Source: a virus
Direction: 5' to 3' (one strand)
IMG/VR virus record: IMGVR_UViG_3300005805_000045
Span: 32,001 to 96,000 of that record
DNA length: 64,000 bases
The position numbers and the translations under genes are program-made. The notes beneath the pieces are model-generated. The model did not search any database and was not told the DNA's origin. It was given only the letters and a program-made list of their open reading frames with translations. This document shows positions 12,476-28,564 of the stretch, one piece after another (within the stretch, counting starts at the first letter, position 1; the number at the start of each line of letters is the position of its first letter).

Positions 12476-14152
12476 TTACAGTTTGAACTTGTTACTCAAA
12501 ATATCAAATTCAGTGTTATCAAATACGAATCTATTACCCTTACTGACAATCCATTTTTCTCTAGCATCTTGCTCTGGATCATCAAATGGATCGTCTATTC
12601 CGTTGTCCATTAGACCAAATGGTACAAGTTCTTGATCCATGATGTTCATTTGCTCTTGCTGTAGAGTAGCACGAATGTCTGAATTGATGTTTTCTTTGAA
12701 ATATCTTTGAGACGTGAGCCATCCAAAGTGTACTAGAGTCATGGCCAGATCGTCATTGCTACCTTCTTCAGCGGCAAATGAAGTCTTACTAGCTGAGAAC
12801 GTCATAAGTTCCTGAATCGTGTCATAGTCATTCACAATCAGTTTATCTGATTCCACAAGTGTTTTGAGATTGGCACAACCAATAGCTTTGGTCTGTTTGT
12901 TAGTTTTGAGACCGTAAGCAATCTTCTTTTTGAAGCCTGGAGTATGCTGCTGGCCCTGCTTACCCTTCATTTCAATCTTGATTAGATTTTCGTAAGCTAG
13001 TTCATGATGGATAATATCTGAGACTTGAAGTCCAATAGAGTTGATTTCTACAAGAATGAATGCTTCATTATAATAATGAGCAAACTTGACAATCTCTGTA
13101 GGTAGAAGCAGTGGTGCAATCTTGTTGTTTCGGTACTTGGCTACCAATCTATAAGGCAGTTCTGATACGTCTATAATAGAAAAAGTCGAGTAATCAAGAC
13201 CCTGACCTTCTGCTACGTCTACAGTCATTGTGTATGTTCGACCCTTTTCAGGCTCTTTGTAGATGTCAAGAAACCCATCTTTGCGAAGTGGATTGTGCCA
13301 GACAAGTGATCGTAGCTTAACAGGATGAATCAGTGTGTTAGCAGACCCAATGAACTCGCATTCGAACTCTTGACGAAACTGATCTGGTGACGTGTTTCGA
13401 ATAGTCGTTTCTTTCCAGGCTTCGTCTCTACCAGGAACCATTGACCAGTGAATCTCGATAGGCACATACAGGCTTTTCTTCTCTTGTGCTTCTGTCCACA
13501 TCTTGTAAAAGAGATTAAGTCCATTGGGTGTCGAGACAATGATAACCTTTGTTGTGTTACCAGACGAAATCGTAGGATATGTTGACATGAAGAATGATTC
13601 AGCAATGTTGTTGGGTACGAACGCAAACTCGTCAAGGAAGATGACGTTGAATGATCGACCACGAACAGAGCTACCTGATGTTGAGTCTGCTACTGCTTTT
13701 GAACCGTTAGCTAGTTCAAGTGAACCTTTGTTCCATTCGACAACACCTTGCTTCAGAAAGAATGGAAGATATTCAAATGCCAACTGAAGGCGGCTCATGA
13801 TTTCACGAGCAGTCGATGACTTGTTAGCTAGAATGGCTACATTGACGTTCTGATTGAATAGAATATAATGTAGAAGATATGCAACCGATGTTGTCGTTTT
13901 ACCGACTTGGCGTGGAAGTTTACAGATCGAGAATCGATTTTCATGAAAAGATTTAAGCATATCACGTTGGAAATCCCACATCTCGAAAGGCATCAAGCCT
14001 CTATCGACGTTGACGATTCGCATATAGGTTGTGGCAAAGTAGACAGGATCTTCCGAGCATTTGATAAACTCCTTAATCTCGTGCTCAGTAAAGTTGTGCT
14101 GATAATCTATTCTAGGTAGATTAGGATTGTTGTGATAACCAAAATTAGCCAT
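12476..14152 (-). CDS. gp17: terminase large subunit
   Basis: Walker A PRQVGKTT, Walker B IFLDEFAF, STPNG, nuclease DVAEG...DYS, DDLAM. Confidence 0.98.
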   Translation of the reverse strand: MANFGYHNNPNLPRIDYQHNFTEHEIKEFIKCSEDPVYFATTYMRIVNVDRGLMPFEMWDFQRDMLKSFHENRFSICKLPRQVGKTTTSVAYLLHYILFNQNVNVAILANKSSTAREIMSRLQLAFEYLPFFLKQGVVEWNKGSLELANGSKAVADSTSGSSVRGRSFNVIFLDEFAFVPNNIAESFFMSTYPTISSGNTTKVIIVSTPNGLNLFYKMWTEAQEKKSLYVPIEIHWSMVPGRDEAWKETTIRNTSPDQFRQEFECEFIGSANTLIHPVKLRSLVWHNPLRKDGFLDIYKEPEKGRTYTMTVDVAEGQGLDYSTFSIIDVSELPYRLVAKYRNNKIAPLLLPTEIVKFAHYYNEAFILVEINSIGLQVSDIIHHELAYENLIKIEMKGKQGQQHTPGFKKKIAYGLKTNKQTKAIGCANLKTLVESDKLIVNDYDTIQELMTFSASKTSFAAEEGSNDDLAMTLVHFGWLTSQRYFKENINSDIRATLQQEQMNIMDQELVPFGLMDNGIDDPFDDPEQDAREKWIVSKGNRFVFDNTEFDILSNKFKL

Positions 14153-14376
14153 TACTTCTTTTCAATTTTCTTCAGCTTCTTATAGTAGTCAGGGTCTTCT
14201 GATAGGTGCGCCAGAGCGATGTGTCTTGCGACTGATAGCTTGGATGTGTGTTCATGCTCGGTTCTGATGCCCTTTTCAAGCTGACGCTCTATATATTTCT
14301 CCGACACATCATGCTTCTTGGCAAGTGCTGAGATGGACAAAACTCTCTTGTTGAGGAACTGCTTGAAGGTCTTCAT
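14152..14376 (-). CDS. conserved phage hypothetical protein (EHEHT...ALxHL.EDPDYY family, DUF5661-like)
   Basis: GIRTEHEHTSKLSVARHIALAHLSEDPDYYKKL; coupled between gp16 and gp17. Confidence 0.65.
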   Translation of the reverse strand: MKTFKQFLNKRVLSISALAKKHDVSEKYIERQLEKGIRTEHEHTSKLSVARHIALAHLSEDPDYYKKLKKIEKK

Positions 14377-14798
14377 TTGCTCTGTTCTTTGATCTGCTTG
14401 AGTAGGTCCGCTGTGGTCCCAACGAAGACTGCCTTTTCCACATTGATGGCACCGTCAGGCTGTGACGGTTTGCCCTTGACTTCCTTGAGTTCCTTGGTCT
14501 TCTTTTGAAGCTCATACAGGTCCTTGGTCACGTCGGCAATGGTCTTCATCATGGTGGCATAGACTTCATAGGCACGAGGTGATTCGGCCTCGGAAGCCAG
14601 TTTCTGCATGTCGTCCATAGCAAGATTGCCTTTGCGAATCAACTCACGAAATGTGTTGCGGCTCAACTGATAATCAGATTCTTGATCAGGCAAATTGATT
14701 TCAACTGGCTTATCTTCAATCTTTGCTGGTGGTAATATCTCAACTTGAGATTCGATACCTAATGCTTTTGCTAATGGATCTTTCATAGTATCACTCAT
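14373..14798 (-). CDS. gp16: terminase small subunit
   Basis: DYQLSR, ESPRAYEVYATMMK, AVFVGTTADLLK. Confidence 0.93.
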   Translation of the reverse strand: MSDTMKDPLAKALGIESQVEILPPAKIEDKPVEINLPDQESDYQLSRNTFRELIRKGNLAMDDMQKLASEAESPRAYEVYATMMKTIADVTKDLYELQKKTKELKEVKGKPSQPDGAINVEKAVFVGTTADLLKQIKEQSK

Positions 14799-15801
14799 TT
14801 ATATTGGGAAACTCTTGAATAGTTGTAGAGTATCCGAAATCATCACCTGGTTCGGCATCGATTGGATCAGGCTCAACAGTAATCTTGACAAGTTTGAGCG
14901 GTGAAGCATCAAACGTTGATATGTTGTAAACAGCATTTGTTGATACTGCTCGAATCGTATTATTGACTTTGAACTGACCTTGAGCACCACCGATTTGAAT
15001 CTTCTTTAGTTCTGGATTCCATTCATTAACAAAACCGTATGCTGTGGCTGTATCGTAGTTATTTCCTTGATAAACAATATCACCGATCTTGAATGTCGAG
15101 TTAGCACCATTGTTGAGATACATCCGAACGATATTACCAGCAACCAGAGATGGATCGTTGAAGATATTGGCAATAGACTTGCGAATGATCTTTGGTGTTG
15201 TGATTGGACCAAAGAAATAACCCTTGACTGTAAATGTAAAGTTCCAGTTTACATACCGAACAGTATCGTAATTGCCCTCATAAGTGACATTCTGTGTGAC
15301 ACTGTTTAGAATGATAGGAATGTCTTTCAAAAATCCTAGTTCAGACACAGGAGTCATAGTAAGTGTAAAGTCAGGATTGAAATATGGCAAAATCTGCTCT
15401 GCTATATGTGTGCCATCGTCAATTGTCTTTGTGTATAGATTAAGTTCAAAGTTTATGTCATATGGCACACCCATGTACTGTGATGAAACTCTGGATGCTG
15501 TATCACCTTTAGCAACACGAAGGAGTGAGTTCTGCTTTCTAGATTGATCATATCCAATGCCAGTGATTTCAAATGACAGTCTTGGTAGAATGTTCTGAAA
15601 CTCACGAAGCAAGTCTGGATCTGATTCAAGACGTGTTACAAAGTGATCTTTGGGTGCATAAACGATAGGAACTTTCCATCTCTTGATTTCATTGTTACTA
15701 TCTTTCTCTGTTCTAATGATTGTGATGTCATTGAACATCGACCCAAAAATAATGACATATTTTCGTAAGAGTCTGTAATAAAAATGTGTATTACCGAGCG
15801 T
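14791..15801 (-). CDS. gp15: tail sheath stabilizer/terminator; homology extends upstream of the ATG at 15738 to an ACG at 15801
   Basis: VPIVYAPK, LPRLSFE, QILPYFNP; upstream in-frame (T)LGNTHFYYRLLRKYVIIFGSMFND matches the usual gp15 N-terminus; AGGAGG 9 nt before ACG. Confidence 0.9.
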   Translation of the reverse strand, partial: TLGNTHFYYRLLRKYVIIFGSMFNDITIIRTEKDSNNEIKRWKVPIVYAPKDHFVTRLESDPDLLREFQNILPRLSFEITGIGYDQSRKQNSLLRVAKGDTASRVSSQYMGVPYDINFELNLYTKTIDDGTHIAEQILPYFNPDFTLTMTPVSELGFLKDIPIILNSVTQNVTYEGNYDTVRYVNWNFTFTVKGYFFGPITTPKIIRKSIANIFNDPSLVAGNIVRMYLNNGANSTFKIGDIVYQGNNYDTATAYGFVNEWNPELKKIQIGGAQGQFKVNNTIRAVSTNAVYNISTFDASPLKLVKITVEPDPIDAEPGDDFGYSTTIQEFPNINE

Positions 15802-16312
15802 TGGAATAACCCTCCTTTCTTTTTTTCCACCAGAGTTTTCTGGCTTCAGACATTTTTTGTTTTTGTTCCATACTTTTCTTTACACCAAGATGAGTTTCTT
15901 TTAGAATATTTCTATGCGCATCAGAAAGTTTTTTTCCTTTATGCTGCAATCCTATTATTTTTTTTCTCTCATCTGTTATAGAGTGTTTTCCTTTATTTGA
16001 TTTAGAAATTTTCTGTTTAGTTTCTTCAGAGTGTTTTCTACCAATCAGTTTTTGTCTTACTTTTTCTATATGCTCTTTTGTATGTTTTCTTCCAGTCTGT
16101 GCTTTTCTTATTGCAACTAATGTTGCTTCAGCATGTGTTATTTGTCCTGATAATGCTTTCCATGCAATTTCATCTTCCCAATGTCCTAAATCTTCCCATA
16201 GTTGTTTATGTAGATTTGCATGTTCTTCCATTGATACTAAAACAATATTTGACTTTTCGTCTGTTCCACCCATATGTTTAGGTATAATATGGTGTTTATG
16301 ATAAATATTCAT
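15791..16312 (-). mobile_element. free-standing HNH homing endonuclease with NUMOD3 repeats (start ATG 16312 preferred over GTG 16369)
   Basis: HKHHIIPKHMGGTDEKSNIV...EEHANLH HNH motif; GRKHSEETKQKIS repeats; GAGGAG SD before ATG 16312. Confidence 0.88.
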
Positions 16313-16369
16313 ATACTGGTGCTCCTCATTAGCATTAGAGTGGATAGAGACTGCAATCTCGTGATCCAC
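16313..16369 (-). promoter_or_regulatory. structured 5' leader (two hairpins) of HNH gene
   Basis: GTGGAT/ATCCAC stem with inner GAGAT/GTCTC stem; second hairpin TGCT/AGCA overlapping the SD. Confidence 0.55.
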
Positions 16370-16375
16370 ATTTTT

Positions 16376-16382
16376 TATTTAT
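16376..16382 (-). promoter_or_regulatory. late promoter of HNH gene
   Basis: TATTTAT on + strand just after the gp14 stop. Confidence 0.6.
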
Positions 16383-16384
16383 TC

Positions 16385-17257
16385 TTATGGTACTCCAAAT
16401 GGATTGCGTTCGGAGAAGTCAATATAACTATTGGCCTCTGATTGTAGAACTCTGTTATCAAAGAGATCATAGTATGGCGACTCACTGAATGTGTTTGTGA
16501 GAACGATTCGCATATTGGTATTTGAATCCATGCCTCTGATATTAGAGTTGTTGGCAAACTCACCTTTGATTGTGTTCAGAGAAATGATCTTGTTGTTTGG
16601 ATCCCAGTTGCTTACTGATGCTGTGGCTGTGGCTGTAGCAAGTGTATTGCCCTGATATACCGTCTCACCAATTCTATAGTTACCAGAACCAGTCATGTTA
16701 TAGTTCAAAGTAAACACAAAATCATCAGAAATCTCGTCAATTTCTTCAACACCTGTGTTCATATCTTCGTTTGAGTATCTGAAGTTCTCGCAACGTATTT
16801 CATAGATGTATGGGAACTTTCTGCCAAGTGTGAAGAATAGCAACTCATCTTCGACGAACTTTATTTCTAGAACCTTATTCATAACAGGAACAAAGAGTAG
16901 ATCACCTTCTCTGGGTCTTCTTGCTATATTTGTTGGTACATACTTATCAAATGTTCTTTTTGCAAGAACAATGTTTGTGTTTTCTCTAATTTCAAGACCA
17001 AACTTTGAAAAGAAGTCACCATCACCTTCGTAGCCATCTACGTTAGCAATATACATTTCCATTTGATAGGCACGTTCGAACTTTGATTGAATATTCTCAC
17101 CAAATATTTGATCAGTTGTATCCCATGCCTCACGAGGAAGATAGTAGATATCATGACCCATGATTTTAATGGACTCGACAAGCACATCTTCATAAAGTCT
17201 TTGTTCGCCTGTGCGATATTTTGGAGAAAAGTTGTTGAAGTAATGGTTTGTGGCTAT
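16385..17257 (-). CDS. gp14: neck protein; homology extends upstream of GTG 17185 to an ATA at 17257
   Basis: ESIKIMGHDIYYLPR, FFSKFGLEI, RPREGDL, FSERNPFG; upstream in-frame (I)ATNHYFNNFSPKYRTGEQRLYED; AGGAG 9 nt before ATA. Confidence 0.92.
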   Translation of the reverse strand: MATNHYFNNFSPKYRTGEQRLYEDVLVESIKIMGHDIYYLPREAWDTTDQIFGENIQSKFERAYQMEMYIANVDGYEGDGDFFSKFGLEIRENTNIVLAKRTFDKYVPTNIARRPREGDLLFVPVMNKVLEIKFVEDELLFFTLGRKFPYIYEIRCENFRYSNEDMNTGVEEIDEISDDFVFTLNYNMTGSGNYRIGETVYQGNTLATATATASVSNWDPNNKIISLNTIKGEFANNSNIRGMDSNTNMRIVLTNTFSESPYYDLFDNRVLQSEANSYIDFSERNPFGVP

Positions 17258-17261
17258 GGCA

Positions 17262-18038
17262 CTAAACTCCTATATTTTTGACTGTGCCCCTAAACCATTC
17301 ATCTCCGGGACATTCTTTACTTCGTTTATTTATCACACCATTGTTCCACCAAAACGATCCCTTTATATACTTTGCATTATTTGGCGGACGTCCTTTCATT
17401 GTAGCACTTGTTTTAGCATTCATTTGCTTTTTCAATTCAGGATCATGCTGTTTGCCATAAAAAGGATTCTTTTCACCACTAAGAGCATCACTAACTTTTT
17501 TTCTATGTTCATCTGATAAAGGACCCAAGATTTTTCCTTTATTGCTTTCAGATATCTTTCTTTTTGTTTCTTCTGTTTTTTTCTTGCCAGTATTAGATAA
17601 CGATCTCTTTGCGATTTGTTCTAGTGTTTGTGGAGATAGTTTTTTGCGTCCCTCTAAATATTTTTTTTGATATTCTGGATCTTGATGAAGTTTCTTAGAT
17701 GCTTCAGATAGTTTTTCACGAACGTTTTTGTTAGATTGATCATCAATGTGCCAATGGCCAAAATGTTTTTTGCTCAAATTATAATATTTAATGCCCAACT
17801 CGTTATCGGCAATTAATTGAAGCCATTTATGCTCTTGTTCCAACAAAACTTCTTTATCAATATTTTTCTGAATAATACGTCGTTTGAAATTTTCTGGTCT
17901 ACGCCTATATGCATCACGCATTCTTCTAGACGAACAGATGTATCCATCATTTATAGTTCCATAGTGACAGCCGAGATAATACATCTTACGCTTGCTGTCA
18001 TACCAAATATAGATAAATCCTGTCTTTTCTTGGCACAT
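17262..18038 (-). mobile_element. free-standing GIY-YIG (Seg-like) homing endonuclease with NUMOD3 repeats
   Basis: GFIYIWYD...MYYLGCH..DGYICSS, YYNL; KKTEETKRKISES, GEKNPFYGKQH. Confidence 0.85.
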
Positions 18039-18069: not shown

Positions 18070-18077
18070 TATTTATA
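18070..18077 (-). promoter_or_regulatory. late promoter of GIY-YIG gene
   Basis: Perfect TATTTATA on + strand between gp13 stop and the endonuclease start. Confidence 0.7.
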
Positions 18078-18092
18078 TGCAAAATGCGTCAC

Positions 18093-18836
18093 CTAGCCCA
18101 TAATCATCATTGGGGGTTCTTCATGGGAACTCCGAATCAATTGTTCTAATTCTTGAATCTCTTGAATAGCTTCGTTATAGATTTGCTGTCCGTTCATGGT
18201 AATGCCACCAGGTAGTTGCATTCCACTAAATTTCTTCATGTTATTGCCCCACTGCTTTTTGATATAAGCAGTTGCTAGTTTTTTGAGCAGTCTGTCGTTA
18301 TAGACTTTATTATATGTGTCAGGATCAAGAATGATGAATCCTTCGATAACAACATATTCCAATGCGTCAATCTTTGTGTTCCAGTCCCAATCGATATAGA
18401 GTTTGTTTGAATGTCTATTGAATCTAATTGGAGTCTCGCCGGAGAATAGCATATCCAGTGTTCTGATATGTTGCTGGGTTAGTACATAGTTGACATAAGA
18501 AGTAGAAGTAAAGTCATAAAGCTCATGAAGTCTGAGCTGGTAACGCAGGTCGAACATATTGACTGATGCGTTTGTAGAACCTATCGGAAATATTCGTGTG
18601 ATACCAATAATGTTATCAGGAATTGTGATATACTTGTTTGCTATGTCTTGTTGTGTTATTTGATGGCTGATATACCATCTTTCAACGCCATCAACATGGA
18701 AATCTCTATAATACTGAAAGGCTAGATCAACGGCATCTTCCACTTGCTCATCATCAACGTTTATGTCAAGGACTGGTGCACCTAACTGACGTAGGCACCA
18801 ATCTTTTAGTTGTTCTCTTGTGGCTGGTGATGACAT
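18093..18836 (-). CDS. gp13: neck protein
   Basis: CLRQLGAPVLDINVDDEQVED, KKQWGNNMKKFSGMQLPGGITMNG. Confidence 0.96.
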   Translation of the reverse strand: MSSPATREQLKDWCLRQLGAPVLDINVDDEQVEDAVDLAFQYYRDFHVDGVERWYISHQITQQDIANKYITIPDNIIGITRIFPIGSTNASVNMFDLRYQLRLHELYDFTSTSYVNYVLTQQHIRTLDMLFSGETPIRFNRHSNKLYIDWDWNTKIDALEYVVIEGFIILDPDTYNKVYNDRLLKKLATAYIKKQWGNNMKKFSGMQLPGGITMNGQQIYNEAIQEIQELEQLIRSSHEEPPMMIMG

Positions 18837-27155: not shown

Positions 27156-27854
27156 ATGATCATCGTAAATCAATATGGAAAAGTAGAGTTTGATTTGGAC
27201 TTCAATGAATATAAAAAAATAGGAATTGGATTTTCAGGTGGTTGTGATTCCACTTTATTATTTTATTTATTGCTAAAATTGTTTGAAGAATCTAAACCAA
27301 ATGCTAAAATAATACCAATAACCGGAATAACAATTAATAAAGGTAAATGGAAACTACTTAGATCACAGCAAATTTTGGATGAACTTCTAATTCAATTTCC
27401 TAGTTGTGAAAAATACGTAGAAGACAGACAAATAAACTTCAATTGGTCACAAGAAGAATATTCAGAGTTTACTGAAAAGTTATTTGACGAAAATATAGTA
27501 GATATTCGCATATTTGGATTGACTAAAAATCCTCCATATGATGTTATGAAAGAACACAATTTGTTGTTCGAAAGAGAAAAATCAAGAGACAATATTGATA
27601 ATATTCTATTGAAATCAGGTTCAAGAAAAAAAGGAGGCCCAACTTATGATCCACTTCGTAATATTGATAAAAGGTGGATAGCACAATGCTACAAAGATTT
27701 TAAATTGATGGATAATATATATCCCCTCACATCTTCATGTGAGAGGCTGCGTGAAACCTATGATATGATCGATAATGAAGATCCCTGTAAACACTGTTGG
27801 TGGTGTAAAGAAAAGAAAATGGCCTTTGGAACATACGATGGAGGAATATCTTGA
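27156..27854 (+). CDS. PP-loop (QueC-like) adenine nucleotide alpha-hydrolase
   Basis: IGFSGGCDS PP-loop; TSSCE...PCKHCWWCKEK metal-binding cluster. Confidence 0.82.
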   Translation: MIIVNQYGKVEFDLDFNEYKKIGIGFSGGCDSTLLFYLLLKLFEESKPNAKIIPITGITINKGKWKLLRSQQILDELLIQFPSCEKYVEDRQINFNWSQEEYSEFTEKLFDENIVDIRIFGLTKNPPYDVMKEHNLLFEREKSRDNIDNILLKSGSRKKGGPTYDPLRNIDKRWIAQCYKDFKLMDNIYPLTSSCERLRETYDMIDNEDPCKHCWWCKEKKMAFGTYDGGIS

Positions 27855-28564
27855 TAACTGTGACATGTGTAAAATGGGGCAACAAGTACTCGGCAGAATA
27901 CGTTAATCGTCTTGAAGTGATGGTGCGTAAATATCTGAATGCGGAACATCGATTTGTCTGTCTAACTGAAGACCCAACTGACGTAAAATGTGAAACGATT
28001 GCTCTACCAAAAGACAATGATCTGGAGGGTTGGTGGAACAAGATGTATTTGTTCTCTTCTGACTATCTCAAGGACACATGCCTGTATTTTGATCTTGATA
28101 CCGTCATTCAGCAGCCAATTGATTGCCTCCTGGACTATCAGGACAAACTCACTGGCGTATACACGTATTGGAACGACTTCTACACTGACGGAGACTATCC
28201 CTTTGCCATGCTCAAATATAAGACTCCATTTAATTCGTCAGTGATGGTATGGAAAGCTGAAGAATATTATTGGGTCTATGACAAGTTCAACGATGACAGA
28301 GACTGGCATGTCATTAAGTATTATGGTGACGACAAGTTTCTGGGCAATGAGATTGCTGATAAACGAACCTTTCCCAAGGGCTGGATTTACTCCAGACTAT
28401 ACGGAAGATACGAGCACGATTTCCCTACCGAAATACTTCAAATTTACTCAGGGTACGAAGAAGGTCTGTTTCACTATCCTGATCACAAAATCTGTCTATT
28501 CAACGGTCCTACTGTCGATCTTCACTATAAGGGGTTTGAGCACTATTGGAACACTGCTTCGTAA
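27851..28564 (+). CDS. GT-A glycosyltransferase (KWG-x-KY family)
   Basis: CVKWGNKYSAEYVNRL, GWWNKMYLF, YFDLD, FNSSVMVW; TTG start with GGAGG. Confidence 0.85.
   Translation: MITVTCVKWGNKYSAEYVNRLEVMVRKYLNAEHRFVCLTEDPTDVKCETIALPKDNDLEGWWNKMYLFSSDYLKDTCLYFDLDTVIQQPIDCLLDYQDKLTGVYTYWNDFYTDGDYPFAMLKYKTPFNSSVMVWKAEEYYWVYDKFNDDRDWHVIKYYGDDKFLGNEIADKRTFPKGWIYSRLYGRYEHDFPTEILQIYSGYEEGLFHYPDHKICLFNGPTVDLHYKGFEHYWNTAS

Follow-up and report, generated by a model that had tools for sequence, protein, structure and literature searches.

Organization of the gp13-gp17 region

The window, which is the whole 64,000-nucleotide stretch of DNA analysed here, covers positions 32001-96000 of an IMG/VR virus record that is complete at 163,885 bp and has terminal repeats; it derives from an aquatic T4-like phage with a GC content of 39.5%. 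According to the ORF list and Pfam, its - strand carries a T4-type module with the gene order 13-14-15-16-17, as in T4, to which two homing endonuclease genes are added. The features of this region are as follows.

18093-18836, - strand: gp13-like gene of the T4-type module
17262-18038, - strand: GIY-YIG-type (NUMOD3) homing endonuclease gene between gp13 and gp14 (ORF list, Pfam)
16385-17257, - strand: gp14 neck protein CDS with a PF11649 match; ATA at the aligned start, 17257-17255
16309-16371, - strand: 20-codon upstream ORF in the HNH leader, read from the sequence
15803-16370, - strand: 568-nt insert that is not in the closest relative, L002 (blastn, window versus L002)
15791-16312, - strand: HNH-NUMOD3 free-standing homing endonuclease gene, 173 codons from ATG 16312
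15811-15816, - strand: AGGAGG Shine-Dalgarno (SD) site, read from the sequence, within K-E-G codons of the HNH gene
14791-15801, - strand: gp15 tail sheath stabiliser/tail terminator CDS, 336 codons from ACG; stop codon 14793-14791
15799-15801, - strand: proposed gp15 initiation codon ACG, aligned with the ATG of relatives
15736-15738, - strand: first in-frame ATG of gp15, codon 22, the start chosen by automatic gene calling
14373-14798, - strand: gp16 of the T4-type module
Between gp16 and the large terminase, - strand: DUF5661 ORF, listed within the T4-type module
12476-14152, - strand: large terminase, identity read from the ORF

The sequence TATAAATA is found at 18077-18070, ahead of the GIY-YIG-type gene, and the late-promoter-like sequence AATAAATA at 16383-16376. 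The gene between gp14 and gp15 is identified as an HNH homing endonuclease gene from its sequence, and its cleavage and homing activities are putative. Its product matches NUMOD3 (E=1.3e-7; 31.8 bits against a cut-off of 20.4) and scores 18.9 bits with the HNH profile, under the 21.4-bit cut-off, with a readable HHIIPKHMGG...N...H motif; the homolog from relative L226, which is 56% identical to it, passes the HNH cut-off with 25.2 bits. In the leader of the gene, which is common to the window and the endonuclease gene of L119, the TGA stop of the upstream ORF overlaps the HNH start codon (ATGA).

L002 is collinear with the window at 82-85% DNA identity and lacks both endonuclease genes. Comparison by blastn shows that the HNH insert (window 16370-15803) is replaced by 15 nt in L002 and that homology restarts at 15802, one nucleotide before the ACG, where the L002 codon is ATG; the SD site is thus contributed by the insert, at whose edge the T/C difference is located. 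The same slot is empty in L002 and about 85 other junctions, occupied in L226 and L112, and decayed in L227. Since endonuclease-bearing group I introns occur in T4-like phages (PMC2988022), and an ATG lies at 16371-16369, just past the gp14 stop, one could imagine a self-splicing intron around the HNH gene, or a frameshift linking HNH and gp15, either of which would give gp15 a canonical Met from upstream. However, all but 58 nt of the insert belong to the ORF, which extends beyond the putative 3' splice point, and the 24-45-nt spacers before gp15 in relatives L108, L123 and L217 are too short for an intron. A search with Rfam over 15500-16600 returned no intron or other RNA family at E<=1, and no plausible +1 signal could be read in the HNH-gp15 overlap. 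This explanation is therefore considered extremely improbable.

The proposed gp15 start site and the codons before Met22

Rereading of the - strand gives AGGAGG (15816-15811), the 9-nt spacer GTTATTCCA (15810-15802), ACG (15801-15799) and then CTC GGT AAT ACA CAT TTT TAT, the in-frame translation being ...KKERRVIP-T-LGNTHFYYRLLRKYVIIFGS-M(15738)FNDITIIR. The HNH ORF ends in AAC GCT CGG TAA (stop 15793-15791) and overlaps gp15 by 11 nt, so that its stop lies 6 nt past the ACG codon. The initial annotation had placed an ACG start of gp15 inside the 3' end of the HNH gene, 9 nt behind AGGAGG, and all these sequence details proved correct; the presence of ACG at this site is confirmed. Its remark that a change from ATG to ACG is silent in the overlapping HNH frame also held up, C15800 being the third base of an Asn codon (AAC/AAT). 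Ahead of the ACG the gp15 frame stays open over 26 codons, and after it over 21 codons up to the first ATG at 15738; between the upstream TAA and ATG 15738 the frame contains no ATG, GTG or TTG.

The predicted duplex between the gp15 SD and the anti-SD amounts to -12.1 kcal/mol, compared with -9.5 kcal/mol for the best of 118 other well-delimited starts in the genome, and no stable RNA structure masking or exposing this SD was found (fold not significant, z = -0.93). Among 199 long ORFs, gp15 and gp14 are the only two that combine a near-cognate codon, a strong SD at the right spacing and a long coding-like leader, which indicates that the pattern is more than chance. A genome-wide habit of near-cognate initiation was considered and rejected, as gp14 and gp15 alone qualify. 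A common cassette-borne 3' end in the four endonuclease genes of the genome was likewise rejected, because their junctions are dissimilar; the other two co-oriented endonuclease genes overlap the GTG starts of a dNMP-kinase-like and a uvsW-like gene.

The protein read from the ACG matches Pfam PF16724 with E=1.7e-67, its residues 6-218 falling on profile positions 1-211, and T4 gp15 (PDB 4HUH/3J2M) with E about 1e-26 (8.5e-27 for 4HUH) in an alignment that starts at T4 residue 4, the codons upstream of Met22 aligning to T4 residues 4-19. It is a clear homologue of T4 gp15 (PF16724; PDB 4HUH, 4HUD, 3J2M) in the same gene context, and differs from it by about 70 extra C-terminal residues and by the proposed non-AUG start. 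As a separate observation, these C-terminal residues resemble the C-terminus of gp14 from the same phage.

Automatic gene calling chooses Met 15738, the first canonical start, and on that reading gp15 would be 21 residues shorter and the upstream codons an untranslated relic. The conservation of these codons speaks against it. In 107 full-length homologues, the positions matching gp15 residues 7, 8, 13-16 and 20 are 97-100% conserved (F7 99%, Y8 100%, R13/K14 99%, Y15 98% and G20 100%), while the position of Met22 is Met in just 62%. Relative to L002, codons 2-22 carry five synonymous differences and one non-synonymous difference in an intact frame. The sequence read upstream of ATG 15738 contains no SD, and a start there would drop the most conserved positions of the family together with part of the domain aligned to Pfam and the PDB entries. 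In the other near-cognate alleles examined, moreover, the first canonical codon falls at varying positions (12, 19 and 21). The earlier claim that the 21 upstream codons match the canonical gp15 N-terminus is thereby upheld; they are conserved, unlike a start at Met 15738. To the extent that sequence can tell, the stretch before Met22 belongs to the gp15 protein, and a start at Met 15738 is decidedly unlikely. Gene callers cut 20-30 codons off these gp15 and gp14 genes, and the 315-aa and 319-aa database entries (P0121, P0124 and P0033) miss the conserved N-terminus.

The exact HNH-gp15 junction of the window is read as DNA in a single assembly only. The identical 315-aa gp15 call is present on three contigs from two sources (JGI and ENA), and JGI, Logan and ENA all have a 96.8% identical gp15 variant that is likewise called at 315 aa. 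The longest contig carrying this variant measures 64,218 bp and has ENA as one of its sources; an HNH variant has a longest contig of equal length, and the two variants probably lie on the same contig. Short gene calls were dismissed as proof of a missing ATG, since JGI shortened the L002 gp15 despite its ATG, and the multi-assembly 315-aa calls are only suggestive as support for ACG. No GenBank phage matched the locus by megablast, a scan of metagenome contigs with gp15 gave distant relatives only, and the HNH-gp15 junction had 0 matches, both as an exact DNA pattern and as a back-translated pattern, in IMG/VR, from which nearly identical records may have been withheld.

Start codons at the gp14-gp15 junction of relatives

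The gp14-gp15 junctions were gathered from IMG/VR and the N-termini aligned, which yielded 94 distinct junctions. The codon at the aligned gp15 start is ATG in 83 of them, GTG in three, TTG in one, ACG in five and ATT in two. The usual arrangement is gp14-TAATG-gp15 with the SD absent, an overlap that suggests translational coupling. ACG occupies the same codon in four other lineages (L226, L227, L288 and L108/109), lineage independence being judged by sequence divergence, and the gp15 proteins of the ACG lineages are 56-73% identical to each other. L226 carries an intact HNH gene in the same slot, followed by AAAGGAGAGTTAAAGCC-ACG. L227 retains a 75-residue, internally deleted remnant of the same HNH, followed by AGGAGGGTTAGTACC-ACG, and its junction AGGAGGGTTA...CC-ACG is nearly identical to that of the window. 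In L288 an intact GIY-YIG-type (NUMOD3) gene is followed by AGGAGTCTGTGTC-ACG, and the same AGGAGTCTGTGTC-ACG recurs in L108 and L109, from two different samples, behind a 44-nt spacer; the 5' half of this spacer corresponds to the leader of an HNH gene present in the same slot of L112, and the spacer may be an endonuclease remnant. P0066, which reads ...RRVSV-T-LSNAYFYF, may be a further ACG allele. The two ATT alleles, L123 and L217, have AGGAG 9 and 8 nt upstream and spacers of 24 and 45 nt, and they retain a relic TAATG at the gp14 stop, with no endonuclease trace. In all, the other six near-cognate gp15 alleles have an SD 8-10 nt upstream.

These alleles bear on whether C15800 could be an assembly or sequencing error, or a non-viable variant of a phage that really uses ATG. 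A single base is concerned, the assembly is metagenomic, and P0123, a 95.5% identical relative of 336 aa, has a Met start. Against this, ACG also stands behind the homologous junctions of L226 and L227 as well as in L108/109 and L288, the 315-aa call recurs as described above, and a general excess of broken starts is not seen in the genome. Recurrence in diverged lineages makes a single-base error unlikely, and we regard this explanation as highly improbable. Nor is the C held by HNH coding, because the base is silent in the window and the L226 HNH stop precedes the ACG. The ACG codon would either have been kept over a long divergence or have moved with the endonuclease genes.

The spacing of the SD bears likewise on a second near-cognate codon, the in-frame ATT at 15807-15805, two codons upstream of the ACG, from which gp15 would gain a two-residue N-terminal extension. 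This ATT lies downstream of the same AGGAGG, but only 3 nt from it. Such a distance is below the usual working range. AUU is the better-documented near-cognate start in bacteria, with 1-2% of AUG activity in E. coli reporters compared with about 0.1-1% for ACG, which directs Met at the N-terminus (bioRxiv 10.1101/063800). In L108, L226, L227 and L288, however, the near-cognate codon 8-10 nt past the SD is the aligned ACG itself, and the proteins of relatives start at the aligned ACG position. Initiation at the ATT therefore appears quite unlikely.

The neighboring gp14 gene has ATA at its aligned start, with AGGAG 9 nt upstream, in both the window and L002. Because L002 has the same ATA and 20-nt leader without the GIY-YIG gene, the weak gp14 start is independent of the present occurrence of that endonuclease. 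Other relatives have ATT or ATC at the gp14 start behind endonuclease genes or short spacers. It had been argued that two ATG losses in adjacent essential genes, each behind an endonuclease of a different family, were hard to explain as random error; the recurrence of ACG in four other lineages favors this argument, and the gp14 ATA in the GIY-YIG-free L002 qualifies the link with the endonucleases.

Counted over the 94 junctions, which were dereplicated by junction sequence and not by phylogeny, near-cognate starts are found in 3/6 cases with an intact endonuclease gene directly upstream versus 4/88 without one (Fisher p=0.005), and in 5/8 cases with an intact gene or recognisable remnant versus 2/86 without (Fisher p=2e-5). 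The SD duplexes of the seven near-cognate starts all range from -6.8 to -12.2 kcal/mol, compared with a median of -3.3 kcal/mol for the remaining junctions (Mann-Whitney p=6e-5). Where an intact endonuclease gene precedes gp15, in six relatives, the start is ACG in three, ATG in two (L112, with an HNH 40% identical to that of the window, and L261, with a GIY-YIG-type gene, both in the same slot) and TTG in one (L155), so that insertion does not force ACG. The link is a statistical enrichment and not an obligatory one: the anticipated relation between gp15 start and endonuclease presence stood as an enrichment and failed as a rule, given ATG or TTG with the gene and ATT without a trace of it. 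In a survey of 80 more distant HNH-NUMOD3 loci, the downstream genes mostly begin with ATG, so that within this sample the effect seems limited to gp13-gp15 in this phage clade; the survey added one further case, L069/070, with an ATT start of gp14 behind an HNH gene.

Proposed initiation at ACG and comparison with known systems

Comparison with the relatives supports the interpretation of ACG as the start of gp15. We propose that gp15 is probably translated from ACG 15801-15799 and that the weak codon is offset by the consensus SD encoded in the HNH gene. In the presumed ancestral state, the gp15 ATG would overlap the gp14 stop with no SD, and gp15 would be made by coupling. Insertion of the endonuclease gene would have broken this coupling and at the same time supplied a strong, independent ribosome-binding site, after which several lineages would have come to carry a near-cognate start codon. 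The initiator tRNA is envisaged to start at ACG with low efficiency, presumably giving an N-terminal Met, while the SD 9 nt upstream, in the last HNH codons, would compensate for the weak codon; ribosomes that terminate at the HNH stop might add to this by reinitiation. A phage-encoded initiator tRNA was sought and rejected: the genome has a single tRNA(CAT), which is not initiator-like, since its positions 1 and 72 are paired and its anticodon stem lacks three consecutive G-C pairs.

ACG is one transition from ATG and has nevertheless been kept while the HNH proteins diverged to 56% identity, so that it appears to be maintained rather than accidental. The T4 virion contains six copies of gp15, and a low yield would therefore be acceptable; most likely, ACG serves to limit the output of this low-copy virion protein in the presence of a very strong SD. 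Other candidate reasons are an endonuclease immunity or co-conversion mark, and neutral decay followed by entrenchment. In the immunity scenario, which addresses the origin of the ACG and does not conflict with initiation there, the endonuclease would recognise the gp14-stop/gp15-start region including the ATG, the T-to-C change would block self-cleavage and spread by co-conversion, and the strong SD would be a compensation. The changed base falls 2 nt within the boundary of the insert, orthologous HNH genes are accompanied by ACG in phages whose gp15 proteins are only about 60% identical, and the empty-site junction (NPFG...TAATG) is highly conserved in DNA. On the other hand, insertion itself already splits the junction, endonuclease genes occupy the same slot next to an ATG in L112 and L261, the absence of similarity past the start codon gives no indication of a co-conversion tract, and the ATT alleles of L123 and L217 have no endonuclease trace. 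An immunity origin of the ACG is accordingly rated as rather unlikely.

Initiation at ACG also invites a broader proposal, advanced tentatively as a possibility, in which cassettes carrying a homing endonuclease gene (HEG) entrench themselves through translation. With the SD in the last codons of the HEG, a change of ATG to ACG or AUH would make the essential gene dependent on the 3' end of the cassette. The change itself might stem from drift, from selection against over-expression, or from immunity that spreads with homing. Were this true, only deletions sparing the cassette 3' end would survive, which would fit the internal HNH deletion in L227, the spacer of 44 nt in L108/109 and the gp14 leader of 20 nt in L002, and weak starts of virion genes would be both scars and anchors of endonuclease invasion.

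Both elements of the gp15 arrangement are of known kinds, namely near-cognate initiation and expression signals embedded in an HEG. To our knowledge, very few natural bacterial or phage genes have been shown to start at codons other than AUG, GUG or UUG; if translated as proposed, gp15 would be a clear natural example, an essential virion gene in which ACG, one of the weakest such codons in E. coli reporters, persists in diverged lineages. The AUU starts of infC and pcnB are the only experimentally confirmed near-cognate starts in E. coli, and they resemble the proposed gp15 start in that the first codon of a functional gene differs from AUG by one base and is read at low efficiency by the initiator tRNA (bioRxiv 10.1101/063800). 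The gp15 codon differs in being ACG, a weaker class in E. coli reporters, and in belonging to a phage virion gene; moreover, it is paired with a consensus SD within another gene, and there is no hint of an autoregulation like that of IF3.

In T4, promoters of essential genes are embedded in seg and mob genes, as with segG and gene 32, an arrangement argued to favor endonuclease retention (PMC2988022). The gp15 site is alike in that the expression signal of an essential downstream gene lies within the coding region of a free-standing homing endonuclease, and it differs in that the signal is translational (the SD); a weakened host start codon is not described for the T4 genes (PMC2988022). The proposed mechanism would thus extend HEG retention through embedded host signals from transcription to translation. 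A translational element that keeps a neighboring gene expressed is also carried by the HNH cassette of T4 mobA/gene 60 (bioRxiv 10.1101/2022.08.31.505936), where it is a 50-nt ribosomal bypass in a split gene, in contrast to the SD and near-cognate start of an intact gp15. Finally, the gp14-TAATG-gp15 arrangement of most relatives corresponds to the TAATG coupling of T4 nrdA/mobE and the clamp-loader genes (PMC2988022). In the window, where the HNH stop closely follows the ACG, reinitiation after HNH termination may contribute to gp15 synthesis in a comparable manner, although restart would take place here at a non-AUG codon behind a strong SD.

Start codon of gp14 and relic starts before gp15

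Window 17255-17271, minus strand: aligned start and leader of gp14 (counterpart L002:730-752)
L123:2915-2946, L217:2890-2943 and L002:1623-1657: relic TAATG and tiny ORF

The codon at the aligned start of gp14 is ATA, with AGGAG 9 nt upstream. The 19-nt gp14 leader and the ATA are identical in the closest relative, L002, though the GIY-YIG endonuclease gene that lies between gp13 and gp14 in the window is absent there. Near-cognate gp14 starts also occur in other related loci, namely ATT in L116 and ATC in both L119 and L121; in L069/070 the start is ATT, and an HNH gene lies upstream whose end is the same GGAGTTTA. At the next junction, the gp14 stop keeps a relic TAATG in L002 and in the two relatives with ATT at the aligned gp15 start (L123 and L217), and a tiny ORF then lies ahead of the new start of gp15; it consists of ATG-TAA in L123 and is 6 codons long in L217 and 9 in L002. 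These tiny ORFs are possibly relay reinitiation paths or scars of endonuclease loss.

HNH leader and late-promoter motifs

Window 16309-16383, minus strand: leader of the HNH gene
Window 18070-18077, minus strand: TATAAATA match directly 5' of the GIY-YIG gene

The late-promoter-like AATAAATA stands in the HNH leader immediately 3' of the gp14 stop. The leader also carries GAGGAG 9 nt upstream of the HNH ATG and an upstream ORF of 20 codons, whose TGA overlaps that ATG as ATGA; at the sequence level this leader is common to the L119 endonuclease gene that precedes gp14. Exact matches to the T4 late-promoter consensus, TATAAATA, were counted across the window: all 8 are on the minus strand, and their total is not significantly over chance (8 observed versus 4.3 expected).

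Other endonuclease genes and a phage tRNA

Genome 14221-14985 and 27711-28262, minus strand: two more NUMOD3 endonuclease genes, outside the window
Genome 148676-148751: tRNA with anticodon CAT

Both additional NUMOD3 genes overlap the GTG start of the next gene downstream, which is dNMP-kinase-like in one case (8-nt overlap; GGAG, 7 nt, GTG) and uvsW-like in the other (GTGA overlap; no clear SD). The gp16/DUF5661 junction is a third variable slot, holding a 236-aa ORF in L002 (L002:3077-3787, beginning MKTFKQY) that is absent from the window, and a GIY-YIG-like gene in L108. The tRNA does not have the features of an initiator and could be either an elongator tRNA-Met or tRNA-Ile(CAU).

C-terminal domain common to gp14 and gp15

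Window 14791-15100, minus strand: C-terminal domain of gp15
Window 16385-16700, minus strand: similar domain of gp14

Because these domains (G-x-TVYQG...W[DN]P...) are alike, tblastn merged gp14 and gp15 of relatives into a single match. T4 gp15, in contrast, is without the C-terminal extension present in gp15 of this phage.
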